Shown one piece after another: positions 576 to 56,260 of a stretch of DNA of 59,472 nucleotides. Made by a program: the position numbers and the translations under genes. Source of the stretch: Candidatus Kaiserbacteria bacterium (lineage in GTDB: Bacteria > Patescibacteriota > Minisyncoccia > Phycocordibacterales > Phycocordibacteraceae); assembly GCA_026396675.1 (NCBI GenBank), contig JAPLWI010000011.1, forward strand, positions 1 through 59,472. Direction: 5' to 3'. Position 1 is the first letter of the stretch. Each line of letters begins with the position of its first letter. Below the pieces are notes generated by a model. The model did not search any database. It had not been told where the DNA came from and saw only the letters and a list, made by a program, of their open reading frames with translations.

Positions 576-1208
576 ATGAAAAAGCCCCGAGTCGGTGTAT
601 TTATTGATGCAGGGAATCTGTATCACACATCTGCTAGAATCGGATGGCGCATTGATTTCAGAAAATTGAGAAACTTGTTGTCTCATACTTGTGACCTATC
701 TTTCATTAACTACCATATTATTGTTCCGCGTGAGGATGATGTGAATTATGCAAAAACGCTCACACACATACAAAAGGCCTCCGCGGCATTTACGGTGTGT
801 CAAAAGCAGATGAAGTATATCTGGAGTGATGAAGAGAAAAGAGAGATAAAAAAAGGAGATATTGATGTTGATCTTGCGGTGGATGTCATAGAAAGGTTTG
901 AGAATGTGGACGCTATGATTGTCGTGAGCGGTGACAGTGATTATCTCGCGCTTGAAAAGTATGTAGCTGAGCGCGGGAAGCCCCTCATATTTATGGGTTA
1001 CAAAAAGAATATGGCGTGGGAACTCCGTCTTAAAAACCATATGTTTTTTGAATTGATTAGAGAGTGGGTAGAATACGGAATAACAACAAACCCCGACCTT
1101 TCGGCCGGGGCGACGTTAACAGGGTCAATTATAGCAAAGGCTATTTCTGAGTCAAGCATTTTGCCGGCGGGTGTGGATAACGATATCTCAGGCAGAAAAA
1201 GGATATGA
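576..1208 (+). CDS. NYN/LabA-like (PIN-fold) RNase-domain protein
   Basis: MKKPRVGVFIDAGNLY..., DIDVDLAVDVIE, MIVVSGDSDYLALEKYV: the acidic-residue pattern of NYN/LabA-like domains. Confidence 0.75.
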   Translation: MKKPRVGVFIDAGNLYHTSARIGWRIDFRKLRNLLSHTCDLSFINYHIIVPREDDVNYAKTLTHIQKASAAFTVCQKQMKYIWSDEEKREIKKGDIDVDLAVDVIERFENVDAMIVVSGDSDYLALEKYVAERGKPLIFMGYKKNMAWELRLKNHMFFELIREWVEYGITTNPDLSAGATLTGSIIAKAISESSILPAGVDNDISGRKRI

Positions 1209-1415
1209 AAAAATCTTCTGAACTTTCTGAACTGCAAACAAACAAATCCGACCTCGTTGCCGAGGCCGGATTGCTGGAAGCGCGCGTTCTTCCGAATAAA
1301 AATAAAAGTTGGCTCCAGCACGAAACTACATGGTTTCGCGCGATTGCGCGACGAAGCGGTTGTCAACCCGCGACGGCACTTGCTACAGAGTGCAAAGGAA
1401 TCATAGCATAATACT

Positions 1416-1862
1416 ATGGAAAAGAACTTTGACGGATGGAATGAGGTGAAAAAAATAACGCACACAGAGCATCCGCGCCTGTATACGGTTCGCGAGATAT
1501 GGTGGTGCAGACTTGGCGTGAATGTTGGTACAGAACAAGATGGGAAAGGAGAATGGTCTGTCCGGCCTTGTATTATTCTGCGAGGATTTGGTTCCGATGC
1601 TTGTTTGGTTGTGCCGCTCACGACATCAACTCGCGAACACCCGCTACGTGTCACTGTCGGTTTGGTTGAAGGACAAGAAGCGAGAGCCAACCTATCTCAA
1701 ATTCGTGTTGTAGATACTCGTCGTTTGGAGGAAAAGATCGGATTTCTTGAAACGAAAGCGTTTTCAAAATTACGAAAAGCCGCCAGAGATTTGTTCTCTG
1801 GCGGCTTTTCTGACTCTCTCCCCCTTGCGGGGGCAAGGCCGAAGCCAACTGTCCAAATATGA
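1416..1862 (+). CDS. PemK/MazF-family toxin-like endoribonuclease
   Basis: FDGWNEVKK...REIWWCRLGVNVGTEQDGKGEWSVRPCIILRGF...LVVPLTTS...ANLSQIRVVDTRRL matches the MazF/PemK SH3-like barrel signature. The 3' end of the ORF reads through a terminator-like hairpin (1779-1812). Confidence 0.75.
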   Translation: MEKNFDGWNEVKKITHTEHPRLYTVREIWWCRLGVNVGTEQDGKGEWSVRPCIILRGFGSDACLVVPLTTSTREHPLRVTVGLVEGQEARANLSQIRVVDTRRLEEKIGFLETKAFSKLRKAARDLFSGGFSDSLPLAGARPKPTVQI

Positions 1863-1865
1863 TAT

Positions 1866-3164
1866 ATGACCACAACTGAAAAGTCAATGAAGAAAAAGGG
1901 AGTTGTTGATAACTTATTGAAGAGGTTTTTCGGCGCCCCCGTGCCTGATGTTGTCTTTGCGCCTGCGGCAATTCCTGCGACTAAAGCGACGATGACGACA
2001 AAAACCGTATGTCCGTACTGCAATTCGAGTAATTTTGTCAGGCGCGGCATTCGACAGAAGAAGCACGAAGTCGTGCAACTTTATTTGTGCCGGAATTCGG
2101 AATGCGGTCGAACTTTCACAGCCGAAAGAGTGAAAGGAAAAAGATTCCCTCTACAAGTCATTCTGGAAGGCATCAGTTATTACAACTTGGGATTAACGCT
2201 GGAACAAACTTGTCATATCTTAAAAGAAAAATTCTCAAAAGATGAAAATATTTTAGCACCGACGCCAGCTACGCTGGCGTCGTGGGTGGAAGAATATAAG
2301 CCGATTTGCAGGTTTGAACGAATGCGCCCGTACGCCGTCAAATTATTTCCGCCGCAGAAGATGATCGAAGTGGTTACGATGGCGCACCGCCAACTTTATC
2401 GATTCCGATACCATCGTGCAAAAACGCTGTTGTCAATGGAAGAATTTAAAAATCGTCGTTTCGGTCGTCTGAAAGAATATTTGGATAATGTTTCTGCGGA
2501 GACACCGCATCAATATTTTCAAGACGGAGAGCGGATGAGCGAGATCAGGAGCAAATTCGACAAAACCGATATGATTATCAAAAGTAAATCAAATTTCGCC
2601 AACAAAACCGCCGAGTTCGTCTTGCGGAGCGTGCCGGATAATAACGCGCGGCATGAGGCGTTGCAACGCTTCATGATTGCAAACGACTCGGTGACGATAG
2701 CGACCGAGGTGCCGGTGTATATTCGGAAAGAAGATGTGGAGCATATGGAGAATGTGCTGAAGTTCAAAATCTTAGGTGAAGAGGGGCTACTGATTAAGGG
2801 ACATGCAGACAAAGCTAAGTCAAAATCGGCAGCGGGAAGCAAATCGTTTCCAAAACTCTTAACCGGTCACATTGACATTCTGCAAATCCGCAACGGTATG
2901 GTGCACATTCTTGACTACAAACCGAACGCGAGCAAGGAGAAGCCGATTGAACAGCTTACATGGTACGCGCTTGCGCTTTCGCGCCTGACCGGTCTGCGTT
3001 TGTTCGAATTCAAATGCGCGTGGTTTGACGACAAGGATTTCTACGAGTTCTATCCGCTGCATGTCGTTAAAAAATTGCAGATAAAAAAACGCGCGCGGAA
3101 AGTGCATTACAGAGACGGCAGTGTAGCGGAAATTCCGCGCCAGGACGTGTTTAAAGTCGCATAA
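1866..3164 (+). CDS. Zn-ribbon + HTH + RecB/Cas4-type PD-(D/E)XK nuclease (candidate free-standing homing endonuclease)
   Basis: The N-terminus has CPYCNSSNF...CRNSECGRTF (a four-Cys ribbon, IS1 InsA-like), followed by a putative HTH (ISYYNLGLTLEQTCHILKEKF). The C-terminus has GHIDIL ... ILDYKPN ... EQLTWYALAL, i.e. the D, D-x-K and QxxxY nuclease motifs. Confidence 0.65.
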   Translation: MTTTEKSMKKKGVVDNLLKRFFGAPVPDVVFAPAAIPATKATMTTKTVCPYCNSSNFVRRGIRQKKHEVVQLYLCRNSECGRTFTAERVKGKRFPLQVILEGISYYNLGLTLEQTCHILKEKFSKDENILAPTPATLASWVEEYKPICRFERMRPYAVKLFPPQKMIEVVTMAHRQLYRFRYHRAKTLLSMEEFKNRRFGRLKEYLDNVSAETPHQYFQDGERMSEIRSKFDKTDMIIKSKSNFANKTAEFVLRSVPDNNARHEALQRFMIANDSVTIATEVPVYIRKEDVEHMENVLKFKILGEEGLLIKGHADKAKSKSAAGSKSFPKLLTGHIDILQIRNGMVHILDYKPNASKEKPIEQLTWYALALSRLTGLRLFEFKCAWFDDKDFYEFYPLHVVKKLQIKKRARKVHYRDGSVAEIPRQDVFKVA

Positions 3165-3171
3165 ATAAAAT

Positions 3172-3651
3172 ATGCAAAACTACGCGCAATCAAAATATAA
3201 ATATCAGACCAACAAGGCGTTTACGCCGAGGAAGCCGGTCAAGACCTTCCGCGACCTGGACATTTATCAGCAGGCGATGAACTGTGCAGTCATTGTCGTG
3301 AAGAATATCCGGCCGAAATTGGTAACGCTCAAATACCCGTTTTTGGAAGGGCTAATGGACTGCACGATGACGGTGCCGCTTTCTATCGGCGAAGCACACT
3401 CTATCCGTTTCGGCGATTTCGCGAAGGGACTCGGTTTGATGGAAAAAGCAATGTCGGGGTGCAACAAGATGATTATCTATCTGGAACATATTAAAGGTAT
3501 GTACGGAGCAAAGGTTGATGCCGGTGTAATTGATGAGATTATCGCACGTTATGCCGAGACGCGGACCAAGGCATTTCATTTGGAATGTTCGTGGAAGAAA
3601 TGGGGGACCGCGCCGCGTGAGCGCGGCGCGTTGGGCGCAGTCAAGCTATAA
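3172..3651 (+). CDS. Four-helix-bundle protein (23S rRNA intervening-sequence protein family type)
   Basis: FRDLDIYQQAMNCAVIVVKNIRPK...FLEGLMDC...SIGEA resembles the characteristic F.DL.vyq.A opening and helical pattern of this family. Confidence 0.6.
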   Translation: MQNYAQSKYKYQTNKAFTPRKPVKTFRDLDIYQQAMNCAVIVVKNIRPKLVTLKYPFLEGLMDCTMTVPLSIGEAHSIRFGDFAKGLGLMEKAMSGCNKMIIYLEHIKGMYGAKVDAGVIDEIIARYAETRTKAFHLECSWKKWGTAPRERGALGAVKL

Positions 3652-3665
3652 TCATATATAAATGT

Positions 3666-3881
3666 ATGTTTCCATTTTTTAACAAAACAAAAGACGTTAA
3701 GGGGAAGTGGCGCAAAATTTCCGATTTGACACCTGGACTTGAAATCGCTGTTCCTTCCGAGAACGGAAATGTTGCTTGGGATGAAATAACTTCCATAAAA
3801 CCAGTTGGCCGCGAGCAGGTTTACGATATTGAGGTAGAGGGAACACACAACTTCGTCGGCGACGATATTTTTGCGCATAAC
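3666..3881 (+). other. Split-intein C fragment (IntC, about 72 aa; +1 Thr codon 3882-3884)
   Basis: Block F is VYDIEVEGTHNFV. Block G is IFAHN followed by Thr. Confidence 0.75.
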
Positions 3882-4973
3882 ACCTATGTCTTGAAGTCGG
3901 GCAATCTGTCGGCTAATGCTCCTTCCGATGTTTTGAATGCCGATGACAAGAGTGTTGATATTTATAAACTTGCAACTTACGCGCTGTCAGAAGAACAATC
4001 GCTTGCGGCTAAAGTGGATGCGGAGCAGACGGAAATGGTCTCGCTCGAAGCGCGCGTGGAAGCGCTGGAAACAGGATCCGTGTCATCCGGTGGCAACTTC
4101 GGCACGGGGACGCTCGGCACGGGGTTGGCGAACGCCTTGAACGGCTTCGGCGTATTAATACAAAAGGGCATCGCGCAATTTAATACGCTCGTATTCCAAC
4201 GGCTCGTCGCGGCGACTGATTCCACAGGTGCTTCCTCAGCTGGTTCTGTCAGCATCTTGACGGGAAATGTGGTTGCGCAGGTCACCAATTCATTGGTAAT
4301 GCCGTCCACGAAGGTCTTCATCACATTCAATTCGCAAATTACCGGAAGCTGGTGGGTGAGCGACAAAGCTACTGGCTCGTTCCGCGTTGTCCTCTCGACA
4401 CCGCAGGCCAGCGATGTCTCATTTGATTACTTTTTGGTTCAAACGGAAGGTCAAATTTCAACGAGTACGGCGGCTGTCAGCGATCAACAAACAAACAATA
4501 ATTCTTCCGTTACAACGGCACCGATTATTGTAGAAAACTCGAGTGCCGAAACATCCGATACAACGGCAACAACTACTGCGACTTCAACGCCGGAATCTTC
4601 AGACACCACTCCGCCGGTCGTGACACTCATTGGCGAGGCGGCGATACAGATAAATGTTGGTGGCACATTCACTGACCCCGGCGCAACTGCGACTGACCCA
4701 GTCGACGGTGATGTGACCTCGAAGATTGTGGTGACCGGTTCGGTCAATACGGCAACGCCCGGACTTTACACACTCACCTATTCAGCTTCGAATGCGGCAG
4801 GGAATACAGGCACCGTGTCGCGCGTTGTCACAGTCCTCGCACCTGCTGAAACTCCAGCCCCAGCCGATGGTTCGACAAACTCACCACCTGACGATACAAC
4901 CGCGCCGACTGAACCAGCAGCACCTGCTCCTGAAACACCCACCACTCCCGCTGTAGAAACACCAGTGGGTTGA
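3666..4973 (+). CDS. Split-intein C half fused to the C-extein of the fibre/surface protein (coiled coil, Thr/Ser-rich linker, Ig-like DUF5011-type module, Pro/Thr tail)
   Basis: It starts with ...GREQVYDIEVEGTHNFVGDDIFAHN|T (intein blocks F and G, with +1 Thr). The extein follows with LEARVEALETGS coiled coil and TPPVVTLIGEAAIQINVGGTFTDPGATATDPVDGDVT...YTLTYSASNAAGN (Ig-like). Confidence 0.8.
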   Translation: MFPFFNKTKDVKGKWRKISDLTPGLEIAVPSENGNVAWDEITSIKPVGREQVYDIEVEGTHNFVGDDIFAHNTYVLKSGNLSANAPSDVLNADDKSVDIYKLATYALSEEQSLAAKVDAEQTEMVSLEARVEALETGSVSSGGNFGTGTLGTGLANALNGFGVLIQKGIAQFNTLVFQRLVAATDSTGASSAGSVSILTGNVVAQVTNSLVMPSTKVFITFNSQITGSWWVSDKATGSFRVVLSTPQASDVSFDYFLVQTEGQISTSTAAVSDQQTNNNSSVTTAPIIVENSSAETSDTTATTTATSTPESSDTTPPVVTLIGEAAIQINVGGTFTDPGATATDPVDGDVTSKIVVTGSVNTATPGLYTLTYSASNAAGNTGTVSRVVTVLAPAETPAPADGSTNSPPDDTTAPTEPAAPAPETPTTPAVETPVG

Positions 4974-4976
4974 ATC

Positions 4977-5063
4977 GTGTCCAACATGTCCAACACCGAG
5001 TGTCCGACAATGCCCGACACATTGTAAACAACATGTCCAACACTCGGTGTTGGACATGTTTGG
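4977..5063. repeat. REP doublet downstream of the RAYT gene
   Basis: A perfect hairpin ACATGTCCAACAC-TCG-GTGTTGGACATGT lies at 5031-5059. A degenerate inverted unit GTCCAACACCGAGTGTCCGAC lies at 4988-5008. Confidence 0.85.
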
Positions 5064-5071
5064 GCGGCAAC

Positions 5072-5731
5072 TTAAAGTTCTAAAACCTCACCGAGTGTTT
5101 TGGCAATACTCGTTCGCACAAACATTTCATATTCGCTTGCCGTTTTGAATTGCCCCAAGACCACTTCCGTGGAAAGTAACTTATCCCAACGACTTTTATC
5201 GATGTAGTCCTGGTAACTAGACCACTCGTATTTTTGTTCATTACTTTTCCATTGTTGCAAACCTCTTACATTGCGATGAATGTAAGTCGAGAGGTAAAGC
5301 AATTGATCGTCGTCTTCTATATGAATAGCTCTATATGGTCCTTGAAATAAGTGTCCGGACACTCTGTATCTCGTGTTGTAATACTTTGTATAACCATTTA
5401 AAACGCGTTGCATATATCGTGCGATGCCATTTTCTTGAGTTTCTTTAAGAATAAGATGAAAATGATTCGGCATGAGACAGAACGCGGTAAGTTCCACATA
5501 CCGATTCTTAATGATTTTCGTAACATCCTCCGCACCAATGTCGAACACTCGGTGTTGGACAAAACGACGCACACGGCGGGAAATTTGATCAAAAACAATA
5601 TCGGATTGGAAAAATAAAATTAAAAAGAGGAATCGAGAATAATCCGAGGTATCATGAAAAATAATTTTCTTCTGTGTACCGCGATTGTACACGTGATAAT
5701 ACTCACCAATGCTTATTTGAACATTTCGCAT
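5072..5731 (-). CDS. REP-associated tyrosine transposase (RAYT; IS200/IS605-type Y1 HUH transposase)
   Basis: YHVYNRGTQKKIIF N-terminus, HUH motif PNHFHLIL and catalytic Tyr motif STYIHRN. The gene is flanked on both sides by REP hairpins. Confidence 0.85.
   Translation of the reverse strand: MRNVQISIGEYYHVYNRGTQKKIIFHDTSDYSRFLFLILFFQSDIVFDQISRRVRRFVQHRVFDIGAEDVTKIIKNRYVELTAFCLMPNHFHLILKETQENGIARYMQRVLNGYTKYYNTRYRVSGHLFQGPYRAIHIEDDDQLLYLSTYIHRNVRGLQQWKSNEQKYEWSSYQDYIDKSRWDKLLSTEVVLGQFKTASEYEMFVRTSIAKTLGEVLEL
5538..5563. repeat. REP unit inside the RAYT coding sequence
   Basis: ATGTCGAACACTCGGTGTTGGACAA, translated on the minus strand as ...FVQHRVFDIG... Confidence 0.8.
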
Positions 5732-8121: not shown

Positions 8122-8994
8122 ATGCCGCCTGCGGATGCGAAAATAAAAGAACTTAAAGAAAAAGCGAGATTAATTCGCGAGACGGTTATTCGAATGCTCA
8201 CAACAGCAGGCAGTGGGCACACTGCCGGTTCCTTGGGCATGGCGGATATTTTTGCCGCATTCTATTTTCATATTTTAAAGCATGATCCGAAGAATCCGGA
8301 GTGGGAAGAACGCGACCGACTTATCCTTTCAAACGGACACATTTGTCCTGCATTGTATGCAGCGATGGCACACTCCGGTTATTTTCCTGTTGAAGAATGT
8401 TTAACTCTGTGTAAATTTGGCAGTCGGCTCCAAGGACATCCAGAACGCCTACGATTGCCCGGTATTGAAACAACTTCTGGGCCGCTCGGTGAAGGTCTCT
8501 CGCAAGCCGCCGGTATGGCGCTTGCGCTCCGTATGGGTATATGTCGAACACTCGGTGTTGAACACGCATGTCAAACACCGAGTGTTCGACACGAAAAACG
8601 AATTTATTGCGTGATGAGTGACGGCGAACAAGATGAGGGGAATACTTGGGAAGCAGTGATGTTCGCTGGGAAAAATAAATTGTCGAACCTTACGGCGATT
8701 ATTGATCGCAATGGTATTCAAATAGATGGAATGACTGAAGAGGTAATGCCACTAGAGCCGCTCGCGGACAAGTACCGCGCATTCAACTGGAATGTGCTTG
8801 AAGTGGACGGCAATGATATCTCCGCATTTGTCGTTGCGGTTGATGAGGCAAAAGCAAGTGAGAAACCGACTCTAATTATTGCGCACACCATTCCTGGCAA
8901 AGGCGTGCAAGAAATTGAGAATGATTATCACTGGCACGGGAAAGTTCCGACAAAAGAAGAATGCGAGCGGTTTATTAAATATTTAAACATTTAA
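8122..8994 (+). CDS. tkt: Transketolase, N-terminal (ThDP-binding) subunit, carrying an in-frame REP doublet
   Basis: TTAGSGHTAGSLGMADIFAAFYF, LILSNGHICPALYA, SDGEQDEGNTWEA. ATG 8122 is preferred over the TTG at 8101. Confidence 0.92.
   Translation: MPPADAKIKELKEKARLIRETVIRMLTTAGSGHTAGSLGMADIFAAFYFHILKHDPKNPEWEERDRLILSNGHICPALYAAMAHSGYFPVEECLTLCKFGSRLQGHPERLRLPGIETTSGPLGEGLSQAAGMALALRMGICRTLGVEHACQTPSVRHEKRIYCVMSDGEQDEGNTWEAVMFAGKNKLSNLTAIIDRNGIQIDGMTEEVMPLEPLADKYRAFNWNVLEVDGNDISAFVVAVDEAKASEKPTLIIAHTIPGKGVQEIENDYHWHGKVPTKEECERFIKYLNI
8541..8592. repeat. Inverted REP doublet inserted in frame in tktN
   Basis: TGTCGAACACTCGGTGTTGAACA (8542-8564) and TGTCAAACACCGAGTGTTCGACA (8569-8591). Same unit as at the RAYT locus. 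Confidence 0.85.
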
Positions 8995-8996
8995 AT

Positions 8997-9995
8997 ATGA
9001 TAAATCCTGACGCAAAACTAAACGCAAAAGTGTTTGCGGATGATATTGAAAAAACGCCAGTGCGCAACGGTTTCGGAACGGGCATCGTGGAAGCAGGAAA
9101 GGCAGACCCACGTGTTGTCGTGCTCTGTGCTGATCTTGCAGAGAGCACGCGTGCGGAATCATTTAAAAAAATATTTCCCGAACGATTTATTGAAATGGGT
9201 GTCGCCGAACAGAATATGGCGACAGTCGCCGCCGGCATGGCAGCCGCAGGAAAAATTCCTTTCATCACATCGTACGCAGTATTTTCTCCAGGCCGTAATT
9301 ACGAACAAATTCGCACAACCATCGCGCTCAATAAAATGTCGGTAAAAATATGTGGCATGCATGCAGGCGTTTCTGTTGGCGCTGACGGAGCGACGCACCA
9401 AATGTTGGAAGACATCGGAATGATGCGGACACTTCCGGGAATGGCAGTTATTGTTCCTTGTGATGCGGAAGAAGCAAGAAAAGCAGTCATCGTAGCAGCG
9501 AAGACAGACGGTCCTGTTTATATTCGCTTTGGACGCTCTGCAACACCGGTCTTCACAACATCAGAGACCCCTTTTCAGATAGGAAAATCTTTAACGTTGT
9601 GGGATTCAAATCCGTCAGCTGGTGGACCAAAAGTCGCAATTCTTTCAACCGGTTCATTAAGTTATGCTGCCCTAGCGGCAGCGAACGAGCTCTCAAAAAA
9701 TGGCGTAGAATCAATCGTTTTGCACATTTCAACTATCAAACCATTGGATGAAGAAGCAGTACTTAATGCGGCAAAACGTGCTGGTCGCATTGTCACTGTT
9801 GAAGAACACCAAGTTGCCGGCGGTTTCGGGAGTGCCATCGCCGAATTTCTTTCAGAGACATATCCTGTTCCGATAAAAAGAATCGGCGTCCTCGATCAGT
9901 TCGGTCAATCCGGTTCTCCAGAAGAGCTGTTGGCGCATTATGGGCTAGACGCTCTCCACATAGCGGATACCATACGTGCGTTTGTGCTTATATAA
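8997..9995 (+). CDS. tkt: Transketolase, C-terminal (pyrimidine-binding) subunit
   Basis: FIEMGVAEQNMATVAAGMAAAGKIPF, GADGATHQMLEDIGMMRTLPGM. Confidence 0.93.
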   Translation: MINPDAKLNAKVFADDIEKTPVRNGFGTGIVEAGKADPRVVVLCADLAESTRAESFKKIFPERFIEMGVAEQNMATVAAGMAAAGKIPFITSYAVFSPGRNYEQIRTTIALNKMSVKICGMHAGVSVGADGATHQMLEDIGMMRTLPGMAVIVPCDAEEARKAVIVAAKTDGPVYIRFGRSATPVFTTSETPFQIGKSLTLWDSNPSAGGPKVAILSTGSLSYAALAAANELSKNGVESIVLHISTIKPLDEEAVLNAAKRAGRIVTVEEHQVAGGFGSAIAEFLSETYPVPIKRIGVLDQFGQSGSPEELLAHYGLDALHIADTIRAFVLI

Positions 9996-23515: not shown

Positions 23516-24214
23516 ATGACGGCAGGAAGTGACAAGGTAGAATTGAAGCGCCTCTTCGACACAGGGGCGCATTTCGCGCAGGTAAAAAGCCGTCGTCATC
23601 CTTCGATGAAGCCGTACTTGGTGGGAACGAAAGGGCGACAAGAGATTATTGACCTAGTGCAAACAACCGAACAGCTTGAGGCCGCGAAAGCCGTCATGGA
23701 AGCGTTTGCGAAGGAAGGGAAGACAATATTATTCGTTGGAGGGAAAGTAGAAATTGCCGCAGTCGTGAAAAAAGCGGCAGAGGAAATCGCCGCTCCATTT
23801 GTCGCGGCACGCTGGCTAGGCGGTACGATATCTAACTGGAGTGAAATAAAAAAGCGCGTTGAACGCCTTGCTGAACTTTCTGAAAATGCGGCGACGGGAG
23901 CGAGCGCCAAACAGCATACCAAACTTGAGCTAGTGCATATCGACCGCGAGAAGAAGCGACTCGAAGAACGGCTAGACGGCATCACGACTTTAACGAAACA
24001 TCCGGACGCTCTTCTTGTTGTCGACACCAAGCACGAAAAGCATGCGGTAAAAGAGGCGAATGATGCGGGTATTCCCGTTATCGCGATTATGAATTCCGAT
24101 TGCGACTTGCGTAACGCGGCATATCCAATCGTCGCAAATGACGCATCCCGCGAGACGGTTCGATTTATCCTCGCCGAGCTCACAAGTGCATTTAAAAAAG
24201 GACAAACAGCATAA
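23516..24214 (+). CDS. rpsB: 30S ribosomal protein S2
   Basis: LFDTGAHFAQVKSRRHPSMKPYL, ILFVGGK, RWLGGTISNW, DALLVVDTKHEKHAVKEANDAGIPVIAIMNSD. Confidence 0.93.
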   Translation: MTAGSDKVELKRLFDTGAHFAQVKSRRHPSMKPYLVGTKGRQEIIDLVQTTEQLEAAKAVMEAFAKEGKTILFVGGKVEIAAVVKKAAEEIAAPFVAARWLGGTISNWSEIKKRVERLAELSENAATGASAKQHTKLELVHIDREKKRLEERLDGITTLTKHPDALLVVDTKHEKHAVKEANDAGIPVIAIMNSDCDLRNAAYPIVANDASRETVRFILAELTSAFKKGQTA

Positions 24215-24223
24215 TGTATTGAG

Positions 24224-24266
24224 GGACTTCGTAAATCCATCATCTGATGATGGATTTACGAAGTCC
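24224..24266. repeat. Perfect 43-nt palindrome (21-bp arms) between rpsB and tsf
   Basis: GGACTTCGTAAATCCATCATC-T-GATGATGGATTTACGAAGTCC. No T-tract follows. Confidence 0.9.
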
Positions 24267-24299
24267 AAACATGCATTGTATGCTATTATCTAAATTACT

Positions 24300-54731: not shown

Positions 54732-55562
54732 ATGGGAAAGAGAATGAAACTCCCGATTAAACACTGGAGTCATTCGTCCTTAATGGCTTTTTTAAGGAAC
54801 CCATTGGCGTGGTACAAGCGATATGTAGAAGAAATATATGACACTCCTAGAACTCCCGCATCTATTGTCGGGAGCGCGGGGCACCTCGCGCTCGAGCATT
54901 TTTATCGGGGCGAAGCAAAGAATGTCGCAATGCAGAAAGGTCTTGAATATCTGCGCGCCATTTCAGATGCTGATATTGATTTCGGTAAATTAAAAACACG
55001 TCGTGCGAAGAAGGAAAAGCGCGCGGCGATGGAACGAGAATATCTCCAAGCAATTTCTTTTTATCTTGAGCGACCGCCGCGGCACAAAGTGCTTGGTGTT
55101 GAAGTAAAAGGCGTGGTGTCGGTCGACGGGCTTCTTCTACCAATTAAAGCCGTTTCGGATTTGGTTGTCGTCTCAAAGATTGAGAAAGGCGCTGTTGATA
55201 TCATTGACCATAAATTCGTTGCATCGTTTAGCAAAGGAGGCGCGGAAAAGACGCTTTTTATGATTCAAGCGATTTTCAATTATTACACCGTCAGAGAACT
55301 TTTCGGCAAACCGGTACGGCGGTTTATCGTCTATGAATGCAAAAAAACAAAAAACGCCGATGGAAGCAAACAAGTGCGACGGTATGAAATTGATTTCCAA
55401 AATCATGAAGAGGACTTCTCAGTTTTCCATCGACTACTAAACGACGCGACAACGGAAATCTCTCGTCGGCGCATCTATTTGCCGAATCCTTCTGACATGT
55501 TTGAAGGCGAAAATTCTTTTGATATATACCGCCTTGGCCTGGTGGATGATTCCACGAGGTGA
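54732..55562 (+). CDS. PD-(D/E)XK (RecB/Cas4-like) nuclease family protein
   Basis: WSHSSLMAF...YV, GSAGHLALEHFY, AVSDLVV...VDIIDHKF (D ... D-x-K arrangement). Confidence 0.65.
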   Translation: MGKRMKLPIKHWSHSSLMAFLRNPLAWYKRYVEEIYDTPRTPASIVGSAGHLALEHFYRGEAKNVAMQKGLEYLRAISDADIDFGKLKTRRAKKEKRAAMEREYLQAISFYLERPPRHKVLGVEVKGVVSVDGLLLPIKAVSDLVVVSKIEKGAVDIIDHKFVASFSKGGAEKTLFMIQAIFNYYTVRELFGKPVRRFIVYECKKTKNADGSKQVRRYEIDFQNHEEDFSVFHRLLNDATTEISRRRIYLPNPSDMFEGENSFDIYRLGLVDDSTR

Positions 55563-55598
55563 CACCTTACGGAAACCGTAAGGTGTCACCTCGTGGAA
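55550..55598. terminator. Perfect 23-bp-arm hairpin between convergent genes (bidirectional terminator-like); both stop codons lie in its arms
   Basis: TTCCACGAGGTGACACCTTACGG-AAA-CCGTAAGGTGTCACCTCGTGGAA. Confidence 0.75.
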
Positions 55599-56260
55599 AG
55601 TGCCTGATCAATTAATTGTTTAACTGCGTCATAGGAGTACGCGCCGTTCATTACGATAGGCACCTGACCTTTTACGAGAATGAGAGAATATGGAGTTCCT
55701 TTCGCACCGACATCAAGCGCATTTTGGCGGTCAGCATTAATTCGCGCGTCAAGAGTCGAAGATGCGTTGGCGTAGCAGGTAGCGAAAGCGTCCCCCGAAA
55801 TGCCCGCAATTGCCGCGAACTTTCCATATTGTGAAGGACCAATCGGCTGATTTGCGAAAAGCGCGTCCGCGAATTTCCAAAATGCGTCATTGCCTGCAAC
55901 AGCAGCGGCACACTCGGCTGCGCGAGCGTGTGAAAATGCATTCGGATGAATCTCAACAAGAGGAAATTCGCGATACACCCACGCGACTTTCCCATTAGTA
56001 CCTTCGTTCGCAATAATCTGATTCATCGTTTCATTAAAGTTTTTGCAAAAATCACAATCAAAGTCAGAATATTCTACGATCACGACTGGCGCTGCAGGAT
56101 TCCCGAACAAGTGGTCATTCGCACCGATCGGCCGTACTAGTGCCGGATTGCCTGAGTCCGGTGTCGTTATCGTCGGGTGTCGCATTGAAAAATACACTGC
56201 TCCTGCAACGACAATTCCGCCGAGGATAATCGCGATTGGGATTGTAAGTTGGGATTTCAT
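55586..56260 (-). CDS. DsbA-family thiol:disulfide oxidoreductase, membrane-anchored
   Basis: N-terminal TM segment, VVIVEYSDFDCDFCKNF (CxxC), and GTPYSLI near the C-terminus. Confidence 0.8.
   Translation of the reverse strand: MKSQLTIPIAIILGGIVVAGAVYFSMRHPTITTPDSGNPALVRPIGANDHLFGNPAAPVVIVEYSDFDCDFCKNFNETMNQIIANEGTNGKVAWVYREFPLVEIHPNAFSHARAAECAAAVAGNDAFWKFADALFANQPIGPSQYGKFAAIAGISGDAFATCYANASSTLDARINADRQNALDVGAKGTPYSLILVKGQVPIVMNGAYSYDAVKQLIDQALSTR

Follow-up and report, generated by a model that had tools for sequence, protein, structure and literature searches.

A REPIN-like palindromic doublet in frame in the transketolase gene tktN of a Candidatus Kaiserbacteria bacterium

Introduction

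Genomes of the candidate phyla radiation (CPR; Patescibacteria) are about 1 Mb in size and gene-dense, and metagenomes are almost the only source of what is known about them. Little is understood of how mobile DNA survives in such genomes. A contig of 59,472 nucleotides from a Candidatus Kaiserbacteria bacterium (JAPLWI010000011.1 of assembly GCA_026396675.1; this whole stretch is called the window here) puts the question in a concrete form. Within tktN, the gene for the N-terminal, thiamine diphosphate (ThDP)-binding subunit of a split transketolase, lie two inverted repetitive extragenic palindromic (REP) units. A preliminary description, made from the sequence alone, had assigned them to the type mobilised by REP-associated tyrosine transposases (RAYTs) and had proposed that they are tolerated as a surface loop; an impaired gene copy and removal of the segment at the RNA or DNA level were its alternatives. 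Where does the palindrome come from, how did it enter the gene and does the gene still encode a working enzyme? In our judgement tktN probably carries a REPIN-like doublet of the REP of a neighbouring RAYT-like transposase, i.e. selfish DNA tolerated in a permissive loop, which is neither an adaptation nor the mark of a pseudogene.

Results and discussion

The doublet in tktN

The repeat finder and the translation of the open reading frame (ORF) agree with the units, positions and unbroken frame of the preliminary description. An inverted pair with 23-nt arms, 91% complementary and separated by the 4-nt spacer CGCA (TGTCGAACACTCGGTGTTGAACA, CGCA, TGTCAAACACCGAGTGTTCGACA), lies inside the tktN ORF, the start of which is given as 8101/8122 (Table 1). 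The ORF reads open through the doublet as ...GMALALRMGICRTLGVEHACQTPSVRHEKRIYCVMSDGEQDEGN..., and no stop codon is introduced. Measured against 34 empty-site homologues, the genome loci described below and the structure PDB 6YAK, the insert amounts to 16 residues (48 nt, C141-R156), fewer than the roughly 19 first estimated. The inserted peptide, CRTLGVEHACQTPSVR, contains two Cys and two His. The junctions are fuzzy by 1-2 nt: the palindrome extends to 8591, two bases past the codon-counted end at 8589. A single REP unit forms a small hairpin with a 10-bp stem and a TCG loop, as given by the family consensus TGTCCAACACTCGGTGTTGGACA, which was drawn from copies in other genomes. As RNA, the doublet folds into a hairpin of 18+3 bp with -34.1 kcal/mol (z -6.3 vs shuffles); as DNA it reaches -24.3 kcal/mol (z -6.75).

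Such a segment might be removed before the mature protein is made, by intron-like, intein-like or programmed DNA excision, or might be an artefact of assembly, given that palindromes can yield assembly or amplification chimeras. We hold this to be extremely improbable. Sixteen amino acids are far below the size of an intein and 48 nt are below that of group I/II introns, and neither by size nor by family signatures does the insert resemble an intein, a self-splicing intron or a known structured RNA; the Rfam scan at the insert returned only sub-threshold generic hairpin matches (24 bits vs gathering scores of 90-100). A length that is a multiple of three in an open frame would be needless in a segment that is excised. 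An artefact is at odds with independent assemblies from many samples, which show in-frame palindromes at the same codon position.

Table 1. Positions of the features discussed (window coordinates unless a related locus is named)
Feature	Position	Strand	Remarks
tktN, N-terminal ThDP-binding subunit of split transketolase	8122..8994	+	Pfam Transketolase_N, E 4.5e-60
tktC, C-terminal subunit, intact, directly downstream of tktN	8997..9995	+	Transket_pyr and Transketolase_C
REP unit 1 of the doublet	8542..8564	+	TGTCGAACACTCGGTGTTGAACA; translated CRTLGVEH
REP unit 2 of the doublet, inverted	8569..8591	-	reverse complement TGTCGAACACTCGGTGTTTGACA; translated CQTPSVR(H)
Inserted 48 nt (16 codons, C141-R156)	8542..8589	+	absent from empty-site orthologues and 6YAK
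Y1/HUH tyrosine transposase, RAYT-like, 219 aa, presumed mobilising enzyme	5072..5731	-	Pfam Y1_Tnp (PF01797, IS200-like), E 1.6e-9
REP copy within the transposase ORF	5540..5560	+	coding (-) strand reads VQHRVFD
REP copy on the 5' side of the transposase gene, some 30 nt from its start codon	5765..5785	+	
REP copy just past the transposase stop codon	5035..5055	+	extended 14-bp stem, 5030-5060
REP copy inverted relative to 5035-5055	4988..5008	-	
Second palindrome family	24213-24277		also L001 7620-7662; L187; L183, L190, L154, L163

An insertion into an otherwise intact gene

The 120 closest TktN clusters were aligned (72-80% identity; all from Patescibacteria/CPR, with names including Paceibacteria, Kaiserbacteria and Minisyncoccia). 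In 34 of them the site is empty and reads GMAYAFRMD-(D/G)KKQRVYC; against these the window protein has 16 additional residues. Further, 80 tktN loci were fetched from species-representative genomes, with motif variants resolved by tblastn. By our own count, 67 of these loci are empty at the DNA level and 13 carry an insert, and the frame is kept in all 80. The structure 6YAK aligns with a gap of 16 residues precisely opposite the insert, and human transketolase shows a gap of about 15 residues at this position. Since the empty-site orthologues, 6YAK and human transketolase all lack the segment, the 16 codons are an insertion. The segment is extra, as had been suspected. The site is empty in the closest relative outside the loop (P0003, 87% identity), and the next two relatives bear a different short palindrome, MSGRTTSRH. 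The accompanying statement that transketolases have a short spacer between the helix and the ThDP motif holds in part. Only split and human-type transketolases have the short loop; the enzymes of E. coli and yeast are naturally longer there. In some loci only, the empty site carries a small natural hairpin, ATGCG-TTT-CGCAT, which could be a target signal.

Window TktN has the Transketolase_N domain, the ThDP/metal residues and an adjoining gene for the C-subunit, as expected for the N-subunit of a split transketolase. All 80 columns that are invariant over the 120 homologues hold the consensus residue, including Y162, C163, D167, G168, E169 and N197 (region of the GDG-type ThDP/metal motif). 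An earlier AlphaFold model computed from 30 near-identical sequences was unusable (predicted local distance difference test score, pLDDT, of 43) and was replaced by a model based on the 120-sequence alignment, with a mean pLDDT of 83.9 and a predicted template modelling score of 0.86. This model superposes on 6YAK with a template modelling score of 0.88-0.90 and a root mean square deviation of 2.2 A (Foldseek). 6YAK, itself a split-gene transketolase, has the same fold and subunit organisation (phmmer E 4.8e-73); it has a short loop where window TktN has the same loop with 16 extra residues. In the model, helix 124-138 (GMALALRM) is followed by a coil (139-160) and by strand 161-166 (IYCVMS), and the pLDDT falls below 50 at 143-156. 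The modelled coil between helix and strand may correspond to the surface loop that had been proposed. From sequence and model we infer that the window tktN most likely encodes a working transketolase with a disordered loop of 16 residues, in which the insert is translated and activity is retained.

It is very improbable that this tktN copy is impaired or becoming a pseudogene and that another gene elsewhere in the genome serves the pathway. The insert does lie only 10 residues upstream of the metal-binding Asp, D167, and a single 59-kb contig of the genome is at hand, but the frame is intact, every invariant residue is present and the conserved operon gap-rpiB-rpe-tktN-tktC is unbroken within the order surface protein-gap-rpiB-rpe-tktN-tktC-pfkB. 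A TktN profile search found no second tktN within the 59-kb window; hence the second intact tktN next to a disabled copy, which the preliminary description had named as the finding that would speak for impairment, was not seen. The genome loci, all of them in frame including the 13 with an insert, point the same way, and we know of no evidence that duplicate tkt genes are common in such small genomes.

As a separate observation on this operon, a 23S_rRNA_IVP/bAvd-type four-helix-bundle gene lies between tktN and tktC in two related loci (L272 10908-11315, L273 6328-6735); it is absent in the window and in L274.

The REP family and its transposase

The 21-nt unit GTCSRACACTCGGTGTTSRAC occurs at six sites of the window (nine strand-matches) vs 0.00 expected from 100 shuffles. 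Two of these sites are the tktN units (8543-8563 and, inverted, 8570-8590), and the other four belong to the locus of a gene for a Y1/HUH transposase, 2.8 kb upstream of the tktN doublet. This family flanking a transposase gene bears out the assignment to RAYT-type REPs. The two copies on the 3' side of the transposase gene, 4988-5008 and 5035-5055, form a second inverted doublet, as in tktN. Compared with the tktN units, the ORF-internal copy shows one mismatch and the flanking copies show two. In the transposase, the HUH motif N89-H90-F91-H92 and the tyrosines Y114, Y117 and Y122 are invariant in 28 homologues. NF047646 (REP_Tyr_transpos) is its best and only NCBIfam match, and judged by its sequence the enzyme is a distant relative of the curated RAYTs. 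Some related metagenome-assembled genomes (MAGs) have two family-1 transposase genes on different contigs.

The REP copy within the transposase ORF deserves particular attention. The motif that it encodes, V[QK]H[RS]V[FL][DN], is shared by 120/120 transposase homologues. We had considered this copy as another in-frame insertion; the idea was rejected, as the motif belongs to the conserved protein. The internal 21 nt were compared over 43 related loci and fold as a hairpin with 9 bp and a loop of 3 nt. With 0-2 mismatches, the same 21-mer stands directly upstream of the start codon in 36/43 loci, directly downstream of the stop codon in 41/43 and on both sides in 34/43, and the flanking 21-mers vary between genomes together with the internal copy. 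Among 31 distinct internal hairpins, 95.7% of cells are paired, compared with only 24-41% in slid registers. Five of the nine stem pairs have changed on both sides (37 cells), and none of 500 shuffles reaches the covariation score of the real hairpins. One covarying pair ties the synonymous third position of Val to the first position of Asp/Asn, and selection therefore seems to act on the nucleic-acid hairpin. The internal covarying copy therefore also strengthens the link between REP and transposase. A REP that is a conserved, covarying hairpin within the ORF of its transposase appears to be new, and no description of a REP copy inside the transposase ORF was found in the literature on REP/RAYT and Y1 transposases. 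It suggests a simple route by which REPs may arise from their transposase or regulate it.

Outside the window, a scan of species-representative genomes that required exact matches, and hence missed diverged copies, returned 57 stretches, about 50 of them in Paceibacteria-type MAGs. Long ORFs contain many of the copies, and roughly a third of the copies outside transposase loci are placed in frame in verified housekeeping genes. The preliminary description had called for a survey of further REPs in ORFs and of their frame bias, and in related genomes both were found. All ten REP-bearing long ORFs of other MAGs that were tested are genuine genes by Pfam (PheT, HolB, two UvrC, a MiaB-like radical-SAM enzyme, AlaRS, LigA, a DUF4015 hydrolase, MnmA and CysRS); in LigA and the MiaB-like enzyme the REP is located between Pfam domains. 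Eight of the ten verified intragenic copies read VQH[SR]VLD, though the consensus is open in six frames (binomial p = 0.003). The further idea that the REP has evolved to be open in all six frames was dismissed, 25% of random 10+3+10 hairpins being likewise open. The tktN doublet itself has stops in 2/6 frames.

Repeated occupation of the tktN loop

The loop that is filled in the window is also filled in many relatives. Between 2 and 22 extra residues are present there in 86/120 closest homologues, and at every other internal TktN site of these 120, indels stay at 4 residues or fewer. By sequence the inserts form unrelated classes, e.g. DVVRPTSDVGRTTS, DLGGPTSDVGPPRS, DFVNPSSDDGFTKS, MSGRTTSRH, IPSTSLGTGD and NLQPTTYNLQP, which are interleaved with empty sites on a neighbour-joining tree. 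Proteins that are 92-95% identical outside the loop can differ in being empty or filled, or can bear unrelated inserts. Read as DNA, many of the loop inserts form long hairpins, often perfect ones, with 12-27 bp in the stem. Occupation of one and the same tktN loop by unrelated palindromes in related lineages appears to be new.

Several of these inserts can be traced to dispersed repeats. Inverted doublets fill the tktN loop of L272/L273 and of L274 as well, and their units are the REP flanking a RAYT gene roughly 4 kb away; this gene is of a different family and at a different position in the operon neighbourhood than that of the window. The tktN insert of L001/L187, GGACTTCGTAAATCCATCATC-T-GATGATGGATTTACGAAGTCC, is identical to an intergenic palindrome of the window in the rpsB-tsf spacer (second palindrome family in Table 1), and other MAGs carry a close variant, read in frame as DIVSPSSDDGLTMS, in the genes for Tgt, a methyltransferase, a UvrC-like protein and TatD. 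The GGSASGG palindrome (CCGCCAGAGGCGGATCCGCCTCTGGCGG) keeps the frame in three MAGs, each time in another housekeeping gene, namely tktN of L041, GAPDH of L003 (6279-6312) and a YchF-like gene of L055 (14933-14966). The MSGRTTSRH palindrome also serves as internal hairpin in a second family of RAYT genes. When loci of 8-20 kb were searched with 12-mers, none of the tktN inserts of other lineages turned up a second time, which had suggested that only the window insert is a dispersed repeat; mismatch-tolerant searches with the arms (L272, L274) and exact scans of the whole collection reversed this view.

Frequent occupation might mean that the insert is kept as useful, either as a Cys/His loop (a metal or redox switch or an interaction surface) or as a hairpin that tunes translation, processing or decay of the gap-rpiB-rpe-tktN-tktC message. 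The proportion of filled loops, the strong hairpins formed by most of the inserts for which the DNA was read, the two Cys and two His of the window insert and the very stable hairpin all fit this idea, and yet we consider it improbable. The peptides at the site are unrelated between lineages, the same elements are found in intergenic DNA and in many other genes, and 34/120 closest homologues and most genome loci manage without an insert. Differences between empty and filled sites, or between unrelated inserts, at 92-95% identity indicate turnover and not conservation. Cys and His follow automatically from the REP in this frame. As for a role in the message, the terminator scan at the insert found no terminator-like T-run (hence no terminator), and the site holds no Rfam family.

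Of 81 loci (L001-L080 and the window), 14 have a RAYT-like ORF within about 10 kb of tktN. Such an ORF is somewhat more frequent where the loop is filled, with 5 of the 12 loci counted as filled at that stage against 9/69 empty ones (Fisher p = 0.03, uncorrected), which may indicate local hopping and is a weak lead. The recurrence at this loop may reflect exceptional tolerance, local hopping from neighbouring transposase genes or a target preference.

A further palindrome in housekeeping genes of these genomes is of another nature. The GAPDH segment LRGAAAAPRW is encoded by a natural palindrome of 12-14 bp (GCGCGGCGC...GCGCCGCGC; L001 4879-4903, L003 6523-6547, L016 8562-8590), which is a conserved coding palindrome and not an insertion.

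Origin of the doublet

For the selfish doublet that we favour, the following course may be envisaged. The neighbouring Y1/HUH enzyme, if catalytically active as we infer, would have mobilised the doublet in trans into single-stranded DNA, probably over a short distance. Mobilisation in trans is proposed because the biochemistry of Y1/HUH enzymes (IS200/IS605 TnpA, E. coli TnpA-REP) is established; both enzymes recognise hairpins on single-stranded DNA. The doublet would have landed in the codons of the loop joining the GMAxA helix to the beta-strand before the SDGE ThDP/metal motif, adding 16 codons while keeping the frame and introducing no stop. Selection would have purged insertions that broke frame or fold and spared one in a permissive loop, and the insert would be translated as a disordered segment.

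The palindrome may also have reached tktN without RAYT-like catalysis, by template switching, fold-back synthesis, gene conversion or illegitimate recombination with the REPs 2.8 kb away, so that the linkage to the transposase would be mere proximity. Source copies are indeed very near, and the tktN units differ from the internal copy by one mismatch and from the flanking ones by two. Inserts of other lineages are often perfect palindromes with stems of 20-27 bp, as would result from quasipalindrome correction, some REP copies elsewhere have variable outer stem extensions, and neither a target-site duplication nor a conserved cleavage tetranucleotide was identified. This origin is nevertheless unlikely. 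In related MAGs the REP is found in unrelated genes that lie on other contigs, distant from transposase copies; it co-varies with the transposase gene in 34/43 loci, the classical signature of a cognate pair of enzyme and substrate; and three different REPs of two transposase families reached the same loop as doublets.

Several points weigh against a doublet that was mobilised by the transposase and resides in a working gene. The transposase scores 37.8 bits against NF047646, for which the cut-off is 80. The REP lacks the GTAG or CGTC tag of the described REP superfamilies and has TGTC...GACA instead. The copy number of the family is low and unlike that of classical REPINs, with 6 copies in 59 kb, of which 4 belong to the transposase locus; no related MAG has more than about 8 exact ones. 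The arms of the doublet differ by 2 mismatches, and the doublet uses a minority, Cys-containing frame. A hairpin of -34 kcal/mol within the mRNA could depress expression. A strain-level empty allele was not found (exact 32-nt flank vs metagenome contigs, 0 matches). The window is one metagenomic contig of 59 kb, and a second tkt could lie in the remainder of the genome.

The event in tktN is, as the related genomes suggest, one case of a wider habit in Paceibacteria-type CPR, in which several small families of coding palindromes reside in frame in housekeeping genes. A more encompassing reading is possible, and we put it forward as tentative. Y1-mobilised palindromes of Paceibacteria-type CPR would live largely inside genes, with the tktN loop as a shared landing pad that at least four unrelated families (the window REP, DFVNPSSDDGFTKS, MSGRTTSRH and GGSASGG) have entered or in which they have replaced one another. 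Three inserts of independent origin are doublets of the REP of a transposase gene 3-5 kb away, and the REP, a translated covarying hairpin in the transposase gene, would be a possible master copy or autoregulatory site. Literature searches found no description of such a REP-RAYT architecture and lifestyle, and searches for in-gene palindromes in CPR found nothing relevant.

If the doublet is tolerated selfish DNA, REP-type elements can persist in CPR by residing in frame in permissive loops of essential enzymes. In-frame REPs may inflate and diversify protein sequences while function is unchanged, and they can mislead alignment, phylogeny and structure prediction in these lineages. The locus may be regarded as a natural experiment on loop tolerance in a ThDP enzyme, and the recurrent filling of the tktN loop is a definite case in which target preference or local hopping of Y1 transposases can be put to the test. 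The basic picture of selfish palindromes tolerated in genes is unchanged and the importance of the finding therefore moderate; its context is unusually informative.

Comparison with known systems

REP-RAYT systems were reportedly studied by Nunvar et al. in 2010 and by Ton-Hoang et al. in 2012. Classical REPINs are defined as extragenic and number tens to hundreds per genome (Bertels & Rainey 2011, PMC3116915). The tktN doublet resembles them in that two inverted REPs form one long hairpin and in that the repeated family flanks a Y1/HUH, RAYT-like gene and co-varies with it. It differs from them by its place in frame in tktN, the low copy number and many intragenic copies of its family, a spacer of only 4 nt, a transposase below the NCBIfam cut-off for RAYTs and a REP that is part of the transposase coding sequence. 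Y1 transposases of the IS200/IS605 type (TnpA) recognise subterminal hairpins on single-stranded DNA (PMC6006769). The window enzyme shares with them the PF01797 family and the HUH and Tyr chemistry. In IS200/IS605, however, the ends are two different hairpins and the whole element including the gene moves, whereas in the window family a single hairpin sequence recurs on both sides of the gene and within it, and further hairpins are scattered with no gene attached.

With its conserved host gene, unbroken frame and orthologues that lack the element, the doublet is also an in-frame coding palindrome, and as such it is not new in kind: REPs and REP dimers in genes were catalogued in 2013 and Rickettsia palindromic elements (RPEs) earlier. 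The preliminary description had known of no RAYT-type REPs inside genes. According to Di Nocera, De Gregorio and Rocco (2013; BMC Genomics 14:522; PMC3733652), intragenic GTAG and CGTC REPs, partly RAYT-linked, are present in several species; over half of them are dimers coding for 20-30 amino acids, and many lie in UvrA/B/C/D, DNA ligase and aminoacyl-tRNA synthetases. Those target genes are of the same kinds as the ones hit by the CPR family (LigA, UvrC, AlaRS, CysRS). The REPs of that survey belong to other host phyla and carry one of the two tags, whereas the window REP, with TGTC...GACA, has neither tag and its host belongs to Patescibacteria/CPR. The gene table of the survey has no transketolase, and as far as its text shows neither recurrent occupation of one site by different families nor a REP inside a transposase ORF is mentioned there; both are seen here.

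The Rickettsia precedent cited in the preliminary description stands. As summarised in PMC10969869, RPEs (Ogata et al. 2000) are in frame in unrelated housekeeping genes and, like the window element, are fold-compatible palindromic repeats in coding sequence which are regarded as selfish DNA. By the same account, RPE-1-type elements measure about 100-150 bp, encode a conserved peptide and come without a known dedicated transposase. The window element, in contrast, has 48-50 nt with two 23-nt REPs and a cognate Y1 transposase gene 2.8 kb away.

Other features of the window

Near its start (43-426, 576-3651, 3666-4973), the window holds the N-terminal part of an intein (CVVGDT...TGNHPYLV) and a C-terminal part (VYDIEVEGTHNFVGDDIFAHNT, followed by an Ig-like surface protein). 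About 3.2 kb with four or five unrelated ORFs lie between the two parts, which may represent an intein that is split or interrupted; L272 encodes the same surface protein in a single ORF of 3032 aa. Towards the other end of the window, at 55550-55598, a perfect 23-bp hairpin is common to the 3' ends of two convergent genes, which encode a PD-(D/E)XK nuclease (54732-55562) and a DsbA-like thioredoxin (55586-56260); each reading frame terminates inside the hairpin, with ...STR*.

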